From: a virus
Taxonomy: Duplodnaviria > Heunggongvirae > Uroviricota > Caudoviricetes
IMG/VR virus record: IMGVR_UViG_2718218452_000008
Span: 1 to 38,347 of that record
DNA: 38,347 bases
Reading direction: 5' to 3' (one strand)
Both the position numbers and the translations under genes were made by a program. This document shows, piece after piece, positions 175-18,475 of the stretch; within the stretch, counting starts at the first letter, position 1; each line of letters opens with the position of its first letter. The notes under the pieces were generated by a model. The model did no database searches. It saw only the letters and a program-made list of their open reading frames with translations, and was not told where the DNA came from.

Positions 175-227
175 GGGCGGCAGAGCAGTCACGGAGTAAA
201 ACTGATACCGCCAAACGTCACCAGAAA
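175..227 (-). ncRNA. dicF: DicF small regulatory RNA (53 nt)
   Basis: Reverse complement of 175-227 reads TTTCTGGTGACGTTTGGCGGTATCAGTTTTACTCCGTGACTGCTCTGCCGCCC, matching the DicF sequence as I recall it, followed by a T-run. It lies downstream of ydfC on the same strand, as in the Qin dicB operon. Confidence 0.8.
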
Positions 228-3904: not shown

Positions 3905-4156
3905 TGAGATTAAAGTTTATTAGTTCAGATATTGATTGGCTCTTTTGTGGAGTAGGGTAGAGTTAGTGTGTTTGTCTGCTTGGTGCCAGCAGCGGATATG
4001 TTTAACAACAGAAAGCATTCAGCATGGTTAGTGGATTTGCAAAGTGGATTAGGATTTGAGAAACTTTGATGAAGTTGTAAAGCTTGTTTCTATAAAAATA
4101 GAAATTTAACTAATAGTTAAACACACCTCCAGCTTCATTGAAAAGGATTATTAGCT

Positions 4157-5056
4157 ATGATTGATCCACTTATTAGAAACTTACAGAGTGATATTGCACT
4201 ACTCCAGCTTTATATCGCGCAACGCAAACAGGCAGGCTTTCATGACATGGAAAGAATAATTGAGTCATTGACCATCTTTATGTTTCGCGCGCTGAAAATG
4301 GGTGAACTGGTAAACATGAATCAGATTAAAGTTAATTTTCCCGCCATTGATTTAGCTGATAATAAAAACATGATAGCAGTTCAAGTTACTACGAATGCAA
4401 GTCCAGCAAAAATTAAAAAAACTATCGAATCTTTTGAGAAAATAAATGAAATAGGAGAGAGTCTGAAAGATAAATACTCTACTTTATATATTTTTGGTTT
4501 TTGTAAAGCCTCAAGATACCTAACTCCAAGTTATTGTAAAATAATCGACCCCAGCTATTTCGTGAATGAACTTTGCGATAAAGCAGATGAAGATATGGTC
4601 CAGGATATGATTGACGCCATTCGACGCCATCATGATTATACATCATTACATCCATGGAGTGATAAAGATTCACTCGAAATTATACTCAATATTATTAATC
4701 GCAATGCAATAAAACATCGGATGAGTTGCGAAGGCAGTCTGTCTGATATGCTCACTGGTTTAAAAGAAATTAATGAAGTAATTACAAAAGGAACAATTCA
4801 ACGTAAGCAACGTTCAAAATCGATATCTGACTTCAAAGATCAAAGCATGGTGAAATTTATGAGAGGTGTAATGGATGATTTGTCTGTTATTCAAGCCATA
4901 GTGAACAAATCTAAAGTTAACCAAGGTGATATGGTTTATATAAGCCATGAAGATATGATTAATATTGATAAATTAAAAGCTAAAATAGCAAGTGATTCAT
5001 CAGAGATTGCAAGGCTAAATAATATTGATATAACACTAAATGTTGTTGATTTATAA
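4157..5056 (+). CDS. Putative SMEK-domain protein (299 aa), low-GC accessory gene
   Basis: The N-terminal region (NFPAIDLADNKNMIAVQVTTNASPAKIKKTIESFEK...LYIFGFCKA) resembles the SMEK domain as I recall it. The gene is strongly AT-rich relative to flanking phage genes and has an AGGA Shine-Dalgarno. Confidence 0.6.
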   Translation: MIDPLIRNLQSDIALLQLYIAQRKQAGFHDMERIIESLTIFMFRALKMGELVNMNQIKVNFPAIDLADNKNMIAVQVTTNASPAKIKKTIESFEKINEIGESLKDKYSTLYIFGFCKASRYLTPSYCKIIDPSYFVNELCDKADEDMVQDMIDAIRRHHDYTSLHPWSDKDSLEIILNIINRNAIKHRMSCEGSLSDMLTGLKEINEVITKGTIQRKQRSKSISDFKDQSMVKFMRGVMDDLSVIQAIVNKSKVNQGDMVYISHEDMINIDKLKAKIASDSSEIARLNNIDITLNVVDL

Positions 5057-5370
5057 TTGTCGATTTAGCAAAACAGAGAATGCTTTGAAAGTTTCACCGA
5101 GAAATATTTATTGTGAACCTCCTTATTGTTTATCGACTTTTACTCTCCGCTCATTGCAGTACTGTCGGAGAAGGCTACTATGTACAAGAAGCAGCTAACA
5201 TAAGCGAGCATCACTATTGATATTAGGAAGAGTATATAAAAACTTCATGCTGAACCTTACAAAAGTAGGTAAACCGGCAATGGCCTAAGTGGCAGGGTCA
5301 TGTTGATCCGGCACTGCCGAGCTAATAATTAACAAGCAAATCACTCTTTCTAATAATTTGTTGAAATAAA

Positions 5371-6024
5371 CTAAATATGTATATGTTTACCAACAACCAC
5401 ATATGAACTACCTGCTTTGCTCCATGATTTTATTATTTCTAAATTATTATCTGAGCATATTTTACTTACAGTATCCACATCTAATAAACCATAGTAGAAA
5501 GCATTGCGAGAGTTTTGGTATATATACCCATGCAAATGTTTAATACCGCTCTCGTACCTCTTGAAATAAGAACTTTTGTATTGATTGACAATCAGTGCTT
5601 CACCATCACTCTTTAATAATTCTCTAATCGCACTGAGGACTTTGTGAATTGTGGATTCACATGGAATTGCGGAAAGCACGTTTGCGCAAAGTATGAAATC
5701 ATAATGATTTGTTATTTTATCTATATTTTCATAAGAAACAATATTAGCATTCTTATAGTTATTTATCACGTAATCTGGAATCGTGGTTTGTACACCTCTG
5801 ATAATTTGCACTCTTTCTAGTTGTCTTCTGGAATCTAAAAATGTCACAGTTTCAAATTTATTTACTAATTGTTCTGAATATCTAAGTTTTCCACATCCAA
5901 AATCAAGGGCATTGCCATTTTTATTAGTGCTTTCAATCTGTTTACAGAGATAGTTAGATGGCATAGTGTGCGGTTTCGCTGCATTTTCTGAACGTATGTT
6001 TATTCCATTTATTTTGTAATTCAA
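5371..6024 (-). CDS. Class I SAM-dependent methyltransferase (about 217 aa), not DNA-MTase-like
   Basis: Motif I ALDFGCGKLRYS, acidic end of beta-2 (VTFLDSRRQ), post-I ILCANVLSAIP, and LLKSDGEALIV. It lacks DPPY/NPPY and PCQ motifs. Probable TTG start at 6024 (GAGG 6 nt upstream) or 6030; starts 13 bp after the membrane-protein stop. Confidence 0.75.
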   Translation of the reverse strand: MNYKINGINIRSENAAKPHTMPSNYLCKQIESTNKNGNALDFGCGKLRYSEQLVNKFETVTFLDSRRQLERVQIIRGVQTTIPDYVINNYKNANIVSYENIDKITNHYDFILCANVLSAIPCESTIHKVLSAIRELLKSDGEALIVNQYKSSYFKRYESGIKHLHGYIYQNSRNAFYYGLLDVDTVSKICSDNNLEIIKSWSKAGSSYVVVGKHIHI

Positions 6025-6036
6025 AATCAACCTCGT

Positions 6037-6732
6037 TTAAAAAATATTGTTATTGTTAAAGAATTCTTTTATTTTGCTATCAGGTATTTGTCTTACTTGG
6101 CTTTCTGTTCTTGGTTTAACTGATGCTATGAAAATAAGGAAGTCAAATGCGACAAGAGAAATAATCCACAACCAAAGATTAATTAAAGAGCCAGTAACAG
6201 AGAATATATTTGTTAATTTGGCGATACTTATTATTAAAATAGTAACAAATGCGATTACTGTATGTTCAAAGAAAACCCAAAAGTAATAAACTTTGTTCCA
6301 GAAAAGTTCAACGTAATGTTTGTCTTTTAACTCTTTAACTTCTGGGTAATACAGTTTACTCATTACCTTGTGAGATTCATCAGTAGTTAATTTTCTCGTA
6401 ACGCCTGCAATTTTTGCTAATGGTTTAATAATTAAATGACTATCCCACATCTTCCTTATTCCAATAATTTTTGCTACATTATTATGTAGATCTAAAGCTC
6501 CACTAATTACTGACCAAAAAACTGAAGATGCAATTGGTAATATGCCAAAGGTTAATATCCATTTAATAAATTCCTCGTAGTCTTTAACGGGGGGGATATA
6601 CTTGGCATTAATGCCAACCAATGGCATGTAGCCATAAATGACTAATGATAGGTAAAATATAAATGTAGTAATAAAAGTCGCCTTATGGAGCATAGGCAAC
6701 ATTTCATTATAACTCTTTGGTGGTTCTAACAT
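6037..6732 (-). CDS. Predicted 4-TM integral membrane protein (231 aa), first gene of a two-gene operon with the methyltransferase
   Basis: Four long hydrophobic segments (ATFITTFIFYLSLVIYGYMPLVGI; FIKWILTFGILPIASSVFWSVISGAL; YYFWVFFEHTVIAFVTILIISIA; LINLWLWIISLVAFDFLIFIASV). ATG at 6732 has GGAG 7 nt upstream. Very AT-rich. Confidence 0.7.
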   Translation of the reverse strand: MLEPPKSYNEMLPMLHKATFITTFIFYLSLVIYGYMPLVGINAKYIPPVKDYEEFIKWILTFGILPIASSVFWSVISGALDLHNNVAKIIGIRKMWDSHLIIKPLAKIAGVTRKLTTDESHKVMSKLYYPEVKELKDKHYVELFWNKVYYFWVFFEHTVIAFVTILIISIAKLTNIFSVTGSLINLWLWIISLVAFDFLIFIASVKPRTESQVRQIPDSKIKEFFNNNNIF

Positions 6733-7173
6733 TTTACTCTCCAAACACTCAAAAAAAAGCTAATCTTCTATAATAACGAAATTCAGCTGGCACAATTAAA
6801 GATTAATTGCCACCAATTTCTTGATTTTATAATTTTATCTAAATGTTTTTGATTAATCTAGTCCTAAAAGAAACCTACTGCATAAATATTTATGCTGATG
6901 ACCCACTCCCTGTTCGTTAACACATAGCAACGTTAGTAATGCATCCTAAGTGATCAATATTTTTGCTAGCTTCATCTGCTCGCTCAAAGGGAACTATAAT
7001 GTTGGCTTGCGTGTGACTTGGCATGTTTAAAGAAGTGCTGGTGGTGACTGGTTGCTGTTTTCCATTTCCACAGAACAAAATCATAGAAACTATACCCAGT
7101 AGTTGTATTGAATCACTGACGAGACAGCCTCATATTTATCAGGACTGGTGTACGTCCAATACAGGAGGTTGTG

Positions 7174-7263: not shown

Positions 7264-7474
7264 TTTCATATTGGCGAGGTAACGGTAGTTAAGTAGAATT
7301 GCTGCGGGTGCTTGAGGCTATCTGCCTCGGGCATCAACACCAAAGGCAGATAGAGAAAAGCCCCAGTTAACATTACGCGTCCGGCAAGACGCTTAACATT
7401 AATCTGAGGCCATATCTATGCTCTACACACGTAGGTTAGCCTCTTACGTGCCGAAAGGCAAGGAGAAGCAGGCT

Positions 7475-7630
7475 ATGAAGCAGCAAAAGGCGATGTTAAT
7501 CGCCCTGATCGTCATCTGTTTAACCGTCATAGTGACGGCACTGGTAACGAGGAAAGACCTCTGCGAGGTACGAATCCGAACCGGCCAGACGGAGGTCGCT
7601 GTCTTCACAGCTTACGAATCTGAGGAGTAA
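7475..7630 (+). CDS. hok: Hok/Gef-family type I toxin (51 aa)
   Basis: MKQQKAMLIALIVICLTVIVTALVTRKDLCEVRIRTGQTEVAVFTAYESEE is the Hok family signature and near-identical to K-12 HokD/RelF as recalled. The track ORF 7418-7630 extends in frame upstream. Confidence 0.85.
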   Translation: MKQQKAMLIALIVICLTVIVTALVTRKDLCEVRIRTGQTEVAVFTAYESEE

Positions 7631-16477: not shown

Positions 16478-16942
16478 TGTTTTGTTATGAAGGTGTTACT
16501 GGTAACGTTAAGGTAATTTAACAAAGAGTCAGTTCCGGACTTTATAGTGTGCTCAGTTCATGGCCAAAAACGATTTCTGTGATAAATATTTTGAATATTA
16601 TTTACAGGTAAATGGAGTGGGGCACATGGATAGAAATATTACAATAGAGAATGAAGTATATGCCCGTATTGTATGGGCAGAGAAGGCAAAAACACGGTAA
16701 TTCCGTGTGTTGCCATGATACCTGATTGGCAGAATAGTTGTTTGGTTTTGAGTATATAGTCAGCGTTTTTTGTTCAGTAATTGCTCCCTCAAAAAATAAT
16801 AAAATAAGGTGATTATTTTTGTTTATTATTTAGTTTTTTTTGTGTGTTGTTTTATTGTTTTTGCGTGGTTTGTTTTTTATTGTTATTTCATTAAGGGAAG
16901 GTAAATTCAGGATGGCAGTCTGTAGATAATCGGAGGTCACTT

Positions 16943-17257
16943 ATGCTACATGATCACGTGGCAGAATGTCTGGAGAAAAAAGGACTGTACCGGAGAGCAG
17001 CTGAACGATGGGCAAAAGTGATGGTACAGCTAAGTGATGACCAGAAAAGAAAAGTGGCGGCACAGAAACGAGCAGAGTGTTTGCGTAAGGCGCGCCGGAC
17101 TCCGGTTTCACCGGTGAACCTGACCGAAATAAAACAAGCGGTCAACAGACTACATTCTGAGTTGGGAATGGGATTTGAAGAGCGGCGGGTATTCCGACGA
17201 TATAAAGGGACAGGAGAACAGAATACGTCCGGAAACGCGCGGTCAAAAAAATGCTAA
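16943..17257 (+). CDS. PerC/Pch-family transcriptional regulator (104 aa)
   Basis: N-terminal HDHVAECLEKKGLYRRAAERWAKVM matches the PerC-family signature as recalled. GGAGG Shine-Dalgarno; preceded by an AT- and T-tract-rich region. Confidence 0.6.
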   Translation: MLHDHVAECLEKKGLYRRAAERWAKVMVQLSDDQKRKVAAQKRAECLRKARRTPVSPVNLTEIKQAVNRLHSELGMGFEERRVFRRYKGTGEQNTSGNARSKKC

Positions 17258-17293
17258 AAAATATCTGAGAGAGTTATTGCCTGTTACCATAAG

Positions 17294-17320
17294 AAAAAGC
17301 GACTTTAGTGGTCGCTTTTT
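17294..17320. terminator. Bidirectional intrinsic terminator between the PerC-like and RHH genes
   Basis: AAAAAGCGAC-TTTAGTG-GTCGCTTTTT: hairpin flanked by an A-run and a T-run. Confidence 0.6.
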
Positions 17321-17338
17321 GTGTCATATATAAGTCGT

Positions 17339-17563
17339 TTAAGTAAACCTGTCTGAACAGGTGCTCTGGTCGTGTTTGTCTTTGTTGGGTACAAATTGAG
17401 AATATTTTTCATTAATTAATCTTCTTCTGCAGGCTTCAATAACCCACGCTGAAAAATTACCTGAACCTTTCAGGTCAAGAGCGATGTTAATTTGTTCAAT
17501 TATCTGGTTTGGAAATCGGATGTTGCGGGTTGTTGTTCTGCGGGTTCTGTTCTTTGATGACAT
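17339..17563 (-). CDS. Ribbon-helix-helix DNA-binding protein (YnfO/YlcI-like)
   Basis: RNIRFPNQIIEQINIAL...GNFSAWVIEACRRRL shows the beta-strand plus two-helix RHH pattern; it sits next to cos as ynfO does in Qin. Confidence 0.65.
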   Translation of the reverse strand: MSSKNRTRRTTTRNIRFPNQIIEQINIALDLKGSGNFSAWVIEACRRRLINEKYSQFVPNKDKHDQSTCSDRFT

Positions 17564-17770: not shown

Positions 17771-17782
17771 GGGCGGCGACCT
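17771..17782. other. cosN cohesive-end site (lambda-type 12-nt GGGCGGCGACCT)
   Basis: GATCCGACAGGTTACG-GGGCGGCGACCT-CGCGGGTTTTCGCTATTTATGAAAATTTTCCGG matches the lambda right-end/left-end junction as recalled. Confidence 0.85.
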
Positions 17783-17965: not shown

Positions 17966-18475
17966 GTGGCTACGCAGACTGAAGTTGCCAGGCATTTAAG
18001 TCTGACCGATCGCCAGCTTCGCAGATTGCAGAAATTGCCGGGTGCCCCGATATCGAATAAGCGAGGGCAACTGGATCTGGATGCCTGGCGCGATTTTTAC
18101 ATATCGTATCTGAGGAGAAGTAAAAACGATGTGCCTGATGGCGATAGCGAAGACGACTATGAGGAGAAATTGCTTATTGCCAGATGGGAACTGACAGCAG
18201 AACAGGCTGTTACACAGCAGTTAAAAAATGAGGTGTCAAAAGGAAAACTTATTGACACCGGGTTCTGTATTTTTGCCCTCAGTAAGCTGGCAATGGCGTT
18301 ATCCAGTACGCTTGATTCCATCCCTTTATCCATGCAGCGACAGTTTCCTGATTTAACACCGCGCCATCTTGACCATCTGAAAACCCTTATTGCGAAGGGG
18401 GCAAATCAGTGTGCGCGGGCAGGGGATAAATTACCGGATTTACTCGATGAATATATCAGAGCAACAACTGAATAA
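17966..18475 (+). CDS. nu1: Terminase small subunit (Nu1-like)
   Basis: Alignable with lambda Nu1 over the C-terminal half (TGFCIFALSKLAMALSSTLDSIPLSMQRQFPDLTPRHLDHLK). GTG start after GAGGTGAGGAG. Confidence 0.85.
   Translation: MATQTEVARHLSLTDRQLRRLQKLPGAPISNKRGQLDLDAWRDFYISYLRRSKNDVPDGDSEDDYEEKLLIARWELTAEQAVTQQLKNEVSKGKLIDTGFCIFALSKLAMALSSTLDSIPLSMQRQFPDLTPRHLDHLKTLIAKGANQCARAGDKLPDLLDEYIRATTE

Follow-up and report, generated by a model that had tools for sequence, protein, structure and literature searches.

The late region of the lambdoid prophage that makes up the 38,347-nucleotide virus record IMGVR_UViG_2718218452_000008 (the window) contains, with a probability that we put at about 0.92, a standard pch cassette of the PchA type, carried as a "moron" of a prophage of attaching-and-effacing Escherichia coli between Rz/Rz1 on one side and a DUF3950 gene, cos, and the terminase genes on the other (Table 1). 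Judged by its sequence, the gene in this cassette is the known pchA, and no evidence contradicts that identity. Both the gene and its prophage context are already known; RefSeq annotates it as a PerC family regulator, and its identification is routine annotation. A mildly useful new point is that nearly all of the divergence among pchA, pchB, and pchC is confined to a T-rich core of 120 bp that precedes the gene.

Identity and prophage setting of pch

The product of the gene matches the Pfam PerC profile (PF06069) at 149.3 bits against a cut-off of 22.6 (E = 3.8e-44) over profile positions 1 to 89 of 90. The coding sequence (CDS) is identical at every nucleotide to pchA (ECs_1091) of E. coli O157:H7 Sakai, and the protein is 100%, 99%, and 98% identical to PchA, PchB, and PchC, respectively. 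The plasmid-encoded PerC, whose open reading frame (ORF) directly follows perB, aligns at 46 to 48% identity over residues 1 to 88 (tblastn E ~1e-17). These matches bear out the PerC-family membership that had been proposed in a first-pass annotation of the window, and the alignment to PchA/B/C and PerC that it called for sharpens the assignment to a PchA-type allele. A 1,301-bp stretch spanning pch is 100% identical in many Shiga toxin-producing E. coli chromosomes, including those of serotypes O145:H28 (e.g., RM12581), O26, and O103, in which the ORF is annotated as "PerC family transcriptional regulator." Nine haplotypes of the locus were compared: those of the window and of Sakai pchA, plus seven diverged copies found on E. 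coli chromosomes and plasmids. Among them, we counted 9 nonsynonymous and 10 synonymous codon changes in pch, and the gene is therefore under purifying selection. Among solved structures, none with detectable sequence similarity to Pch was found. As a separate observation, Pch residues 7 to 47 (16943-17090) gave a below-threshold match to the ANR (AraC negative regulator) family NF033650 (E = 0.046; 13.6 bits versus a cut-off of 32), which could be due to chance; the Aar-like ANR proteins are likewise small regulators linked to H-NS.

Compared with PerC of the perABC operon, which is located on EAF-type plasmids of enteropathogenic E. coli, Pch belongs to the same Pfam family and keeps the N-terminal core with YRRAA.RWA..M and AAQKRA.C. 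In contrast, PerC has 89 residues, is without the C-terminal 15 residues of Pch, and is plasmid-borne rather than prophage-borne; because perC is the third gene of its operon, after perB, it lacks an AT-rich spacer. Both PerC and Pch are activators of LEE1 within the enterocyte effacement locus (LEE) (PMC4764244, PMC4456613).

As described in PMC6265319, PMC4456613, and PMC4764244, pch switches on the LEE, the gut-attachment machinery of enterohemorrhagic E. coli, via ler; for the activation of ler/LEE1 and for adherence, these papers cite Iyoda and Watanabe 2004. Full ler/espA expression and adherence depend on the group 1 pch genes, which are enhanced by SOS (PMC6265319). Pch binds the LEE1 promoter region, lowers its occupancy by H-NS/StpA, and alters the nucleoprotein complex, which makes it an anti-silencer and not an activator of the classical kind (PMC4764244). 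Because the protein encoded in the window is 100% identical to Sakai PchA, the published ler/LEE1 role applies to it.

The whole cassette (16400-17340; 941 bp) is identical to the Sakai pchA locus at 939 of 941 nucleotides, with the two differences at 16491 and 17272, and over its whole length the cassette is matched best in strains of O145:H28, O26, and O103. Sakai PchA, PchB, and PchC (ECs_1091, ECs_2182, and ECs_2737; group 1 perC homologues) also have 104 residues each, and their genes occupy the same post-Rz site in lambdoid prophages, with a matching 465-bp spacer (pchA type, 1 nucleotide different) and terminator. In the Sakai prophages Sp4, Sp11, and Sp14, the gene order is lysozyme, Rz/Rz1, pch, DUF3950, Nu1, and large terminase, as in the window. 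We found no difference of substance between the Sakai pch loci and the window, in which the prophage backbone, including a 510-bp small-terminase gene, resembles Sp14 and the upstream allele is of the pchA type.

Based on an alignment to a pch-less Stx2a phage, the borders of the cassette lie at ~16470, in the last Rz codons, and at ~17430, within the DUF3950 gene, such that the pch module takes the place of a ~960-bp stretch that runs from the Rz end to midway through the ylcI-like gene. The 3' third of this DUF3950/YlcI-like gene (17339-17429, minus strand) belongs to the swapped module and its 5' part is common to pch-less phages; the recombination joint, then, falls within the gene. The hairpin between pch and the DUF3950 gene has the form A5-GCGAC-loop-GTCGC-T5, is predicted to fold into a stem of 11 bp, and is conserved in all E. 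coli haplotypes.

Further downstream, at 17771-17782, the window contains GGGCGGCGACCT followed by CGCGGGTTTTCGCTATTTATGAAAATTTTCC, which we take to be the lambda-type cohesive-end sequence by its resemblance to the lambda left end; this identification of cos is supported by 34 nucleotides that match the end of a lambda record exactly. Thus, cos follows shortly after the cassette, and pch is the final cargo ahead of it. The slot between Rz and cos is the lambda-type moron slot that is occupied by bor in lambda and DLP12, and in related phages it holds either a Bor-like gene or different cargo. As is typical of morons, the pch module comes with its own AT-rich upstream region and a terminator. 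The two cargoes differ in that bor encodes a surface lipoprotein and pch a transcription regulator. Moreover, bor of lambda lies on the strand opposite to the late operon; unlike it, pch is co-oriented with the late operon.

Table 1. Features of the pch cassette and of its surroundings, numbered as in the window
Feature	Position	Strand	Remarks
dicF small RNA gene	175-226	-	Rfam RF00039, 76.7 bits versus gathering score 48
Phage lysozyme gene	15141-15674		
Rz spanin gene	15953-16477	+	Last lysis gene; Pfam Phage_lysis, E = 1.2e-48
Rz1	16230-16415	+	Embedded in Rz
Spacer between Rz and pch	16478-16942		465 bp
Conserved left module of the pch cassette	16478-16780	+	8-16% variable columns; always found with pch
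46-codon ORF	16560-16700	+	24-codon ORF is its inner part, with ATG at 16626 and GGAG at 16614-16617
T-rich/AT-rich core upstream of pch	16781-16900		GC ~23%; top strand 54% T, 6% C
pch Shine-Dalgarno sequence	16932-16936	+	GGAGG, 6 nt ahead of ATG
pch CDS	16943-17257	+	104 aa; PerC family, PchABC group, allele of the PchA type
Element within the pch CDS	17031-17047	+	Predicted pairing with the Shine-Dalgarno side and DicF complementarity
Intrinsic terminator-type hairpin between pch and the DUF3950 gene	17294-17320		Bidirectional-looking; AAAAAGCGAC-loop-GTCGCTTTTT
DUF3950/YlcI-YnfO family gene	17339-17563	-	Convergent to pch; Pfam PF13132, E = 1.3e-17; NCBIfam NF041551
Nu1-type small terminase gene	17966-18475		Followed by the large terminase gene

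The spacer and pch were present in 672 of 5,426 complete E. coli genomes (12%), always together and with a median of 3 copies; in those genomes, the RefSeq annotation has no feature in the spacer. Among deposited complete phage genomes, we found none with the pch cassette (one 3-kb partial record has it); deposited phage genomes have Rz and the 5' part of the DUF3950 gene in common with the window, but not the cassette. Because no complete phage genome has the cassette and yet 12% of the complete E. coli genomes do, pch seems to be confined to resident, possibly defective, prophages. Scanning genome contigs, we identified two further pch loci, one in E. albertii and one in Escherichia sp. (MOD1). 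We also note that the complete cassette is present on 11 records filed as plasmids (59 to 1,413 kb), some of them conjugative (e.g., NZ_CP144927.1, NZ_CP027549.1, and NZ_CP157167.1). These copies may represent phage-plasmids, prophages inserted in plasmids, or assembly artifacts; one of them is a 287-kb EDL933 "plasmid."

The AT-rich core and transcription of pch

Across the alignment of the nine haplotypes, the fraction of variable columns is 6% in the pch CDS, 8 to 9% in 16478-16700, and 16% in 16701-16780 and reaches 51% in the core. The GC content of the core nevertheless stays at 22 to 31% in every allele and in E. albertii, whose sequence farther than ~60 bp upstream of the ATG is otherwise unrelated. 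In Sakai, pchA, pchB, and pchC have nearly identical left modules and coding regions, and their cores differ.

As noted in the first-pass annotation, the region upstream of pch is AT-rich and has repeated T-tracts. The spacer has a GC content of 33% compared to 51% in the window, and 16791-16890, at 18%, are the lowest-GC 100 bp in all 38 kb. Runs of at least four A/T account for 44 of the 120 bases of the core (window median, 5; 99th percentile, 25), making it the densest such segment in the window; the T runs are at 16766-71, 16816-20, 16834-41, 16850-53, 16858-62, and 16873-78. Tandem Repeats Finder identified a degenerate tandem repeat at 16812-16888 with a period of 21 to 25 and ~3 copies (score 59 to 60), a score reached by just 1.3% of dinucleotide-preserving shuffles.

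These features invite the explanation that helically phased T-tracts confer intrinsic curvature, which nucleates silencing of pch by H-NS. The very low GC content and the many T runs are in its favor, as are a repeat period of ~21 bp, which corresponds to two helical turns, and a weak AA/TT periodicity with a peak at 11.25 to 11.5 bp (P = 0.05 to 0.08 in the core and 0.01 across the whole spacer). Also, H-NS has been reported on all known virulence genes of the Sakai phage-like elements (PMC4764244). Using three wedge models, which give approximate values, we found that the core ranks in the top 1% of the window for local predicted curvature but that its end-to-end curvature is not above that of composition-matched, dinucleotide-preserving shuffles, 42 to 48% of which are as curved; the predicted bend is therefore an effect of composition. 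Furthermore, the spacings between tract centers are irregular (19.5, 14, 8.5, and 15.5 bp), and the tract pattern is not conserved, with 3 tracts in the A25 allele versus 7 and a run of 7, 8, or 10 T at 16834-16841 depending on the allele. Finally, the high-affinity motif for H-NS (TCGATAAATT-like) is not enriched, with 39 matches in the window versus 33.7 expected when up to 2 mismatches are allowed, and its sole match in the spacer (16515-16524) has 2 mismatches. On balance, we consider phased bends an improbable basis for silencing of pch. The helical phasing suggested in the first-pass annotation is, accordingly, marginal, and the curved DNA that it suggested was not recovered beyond the effect of composition. 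Of its third suggestion, silencing by a nucleoid protein, what stands is the extreme AT-richness kept across alleles; what does not is any curvature beyond composition or an enrichment of the H-NS motif. Thus, of the properties expected of a xenogeneic promoter, the core has an AT content far above background and not a nucleation motif. Because AT content is the main determinant of H-NS binding and stays high in every allele as well as in E. albertii, binding to and silencing of the core by H-NS are plausible from composition alone.

In the reading of the locus as a standard pch cassette, the AT-rich core would serve as the pch promoter and as a docking region for regulators and would probably be bound by H-NS through its composition and not through phased bends. 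Known inputs to pch include LrhA (direct), Lrp/butyrate, and LeuO (PMC4456613) as well as NtrC/sigma-S (PMC10714755, PMC13012123). Two observations weigh against this role of the core. First, the promoter candidates are weak and would place the T-rich core either upstream of the promoter or within a long leader rich in U. The best sigma-70-like match (TTGCCA-17-AATAGT; 16710-16738) would give a transcription start site (TSS) at ~16745 and a leader of ~198 nucleotides that includes the U-rich tract. With a second, weaker match (TTGTTA-16-TAAATT; 16880-16907), the TSS would be at ~16914 and the leader ~29 nucleotides long, and the T-tracts would be in the position of an UP element. Second, in our scan for consensus promoters and terminators, promoter-like matches were no more common than expected by chance. 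The same scan found no terminator-like site on the plus strand between Rz and pch. Because pch has the orientation of the lysis genes and no plus-strand terminator-like site separates it from Rz, pch would be expected also to be read through from the late operon on induction, which fits the reported enhancement by SOS.

Differential regulation of PchA and PchB has been reported (Honda et al. 2009, as cited in PMC4456613 and PMC13012123). The link to the divergence of the core is drawn here: this divergence is a candidate cause of the differential regulation and, as such, a concrete and easily testable one for why the paralogues are regulated differently. In an extended form of this idea, the T-rich core would be a tuning element that is turned over by slippage or recombination, and the conserved, folding 300-bp left module would at the same time be an undescribed regulatory RNA or a long pch leader. 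If the tuning part were true, each pch paralogue would receive a different promoter geometry or array of regulator sites, which would explain the differential control of pchA and pchB and set the level of LEE expression of a strain. We regard the combination of the two proposals as unlikely.

Predicted translational control by DicF

According to the summaries given in PMC7769764, PMC7873438, and PMC9438474, translation of pchA is blocked by pairing of the Shine-Dalgarno (SD) sequence with an anti-SD sequence in the coding region, and the small RNA (sRNA) DicF opens this structure microaerobically. The window contains candidate elements of such a switch. In the predicted minimum free energy fold of the pch mRNA, UAAGUGAU (17031-17038) pairs with GUCACUUA (16936-16943), which extends from the last G of the SD sequence to the A of the AUG, and GG at 16932-16933 pairs with CC at 17041-17042. 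The fold of 16905-17325 is stronger than that of shuffled sequences (z = -2.97). By duplex prediction, the DicF 5' end, UUUCUGGU, has its complement in the octamer ACCAGAAA at 17040-17047. Accordingly, both hallmarks of a DicF-activated mRNA, a helix that sequesters the SD sequence and a site complementary to DicF, were found in silico. The predicted helix and DicF site are consistent with the published pchA model as summarized in reviews, in which case the inhibitory helix would consist of 16932-16943 paired with 17031-17042, and DicF would pair at 17040-17047. Compared with other SD:anti-SD locks that are relieved by an sRNA, the predicted anti-SD sequence of pch lies ~90 nucleotides downstream, within the CDS; in locks of the DsrA/RprA-rpoS type, it lies in the leader.

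The GGAGG of pch shows no variation in the nine E. coli haplotypes, E. albertii, or Escherichia sp. MOD1. In pchB-type alleles and in E. albertii, natural C-to-U variants on the SD side preserve the pairing in G-U form; in the more distant MOD1 sequence, not all pairs of the SD helix are kept. The prophage in the window carries both pch and the gene for its sRNA activator, dicF (Table 1). Sp4 of Sakai, which carries pchA, has dicF as well (5733-5784 of the Sakai sequence used for comparison). With dicF in the pch prophage, regulator and target travel together.

The left module, its small ORF, and other parts of the window

The left module might be functional as RNA by itself, either as part of a long structured pch leader that starts at ~16745 or further upstream or as a separate sRNA, one candidate being a minus-strand transcript that ends at a terminator-like hairpin at 16708-16692. 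Its folding energy exceeds that of shuffled sequences on both strands (z = -3.3 for the plus strand and -2.7 for the minus strand), its conservation is similar to that of the pch CDS, the best sigma-70-like site of the spacer lies in it, and the minus-strand hairpin is followed by a T run. We nevertheless think it improbable that the module acts in this way. Rfam scans of the region at a permissive threshold and of the whole window returned no RNA family in 16478-17340, and the supplement of Tree 2014 (PMC4104026) lists no EcOnc or other Hfq-bound sRNA at the coordinates upstream of Sakai pchA. In addition, the promoter-like sites occur at chance frequency, and the module is not present upstream of the pch homologues of E. 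albertii and MOD1. Finally, the conservation of the module is close to the level at pch synonymous sites and may simply reflect recent common ancestry.

The minus-strand hairpin (ACACGG-AATTA-CCGTGT, then TTTTT) lies inside the small plus-strand ORF. Together with a weak promoter-like site on the minus strand at 16825-16796, it would bound a minus-strand RNA of ~100 nucleotides, for which we found no expression evidence. HnrS was considered as an occupant of the spacer and rejected, since it lies in Sp9, Sp10, and Sp12 and not in the pch prophages (PMC13502914).

The 24-codon ORF with a GGAG pointed out in the first-pass annotation exists as described, but it shows no sign of being a gene. With 70 ORFs of at least 20 codons in the surrounding 4 kb, such an ORF is unremarkable. 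The 46-codon frame has a full-length match to phrog_2157 and is called "hypothetical" in some GenBank records, which shows only that gene callers pick up the ORF. That the 24- or 46-codon ORF is a real small-protein or leader-peptide gene of the cassette is very improbable: the GGAG is correctly spaced, the ATG is conserved, the frame is open in 9 of 9 haplotypes, and the surrounding module is conserved as much as the pch CDS, but an intact frame is expected by chance because there are so few substitutions, the distinct codon changes are 10 nonsynonymous versus 2 synonymous (9 versus 10 in pch), the SD sequence is lost in pchC-type alleles (GGAG to GAAG and GGGG to TGTT), tblastn searches of phages and plasmids gave no homologue outside pch cassettes, no Pfam or NCBIfam family matches, RefSeq never annotates the ORF, and it is not present upstream of pch in E. 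albertii and MOD1. Thus, neither purifying selection nor homologues beyond the locus, as would be expected of a small gene, were found, and the upstream ORF is probably non-coding.

Elsewhere in the window, we noticed a sok antitoxin RNA of the type I toxin-antitoxin hok/sok, three tRNA genes that lie downstream of the Q region, and an sRNA of the STnc100 family; these RNA features are at 7306-7480, 10776-11022, and 11796-11968, and an identical set is present in Sakai Sp4. Moreover, a multi-kb AT-rich block at ~4000-7000, with a GC content of 27 to 32% in windows of 300 to 465 bp, is the largest low-GC island of the window; it has several ORFs, distributed over both strands, and probably represents additional accessory cargo.

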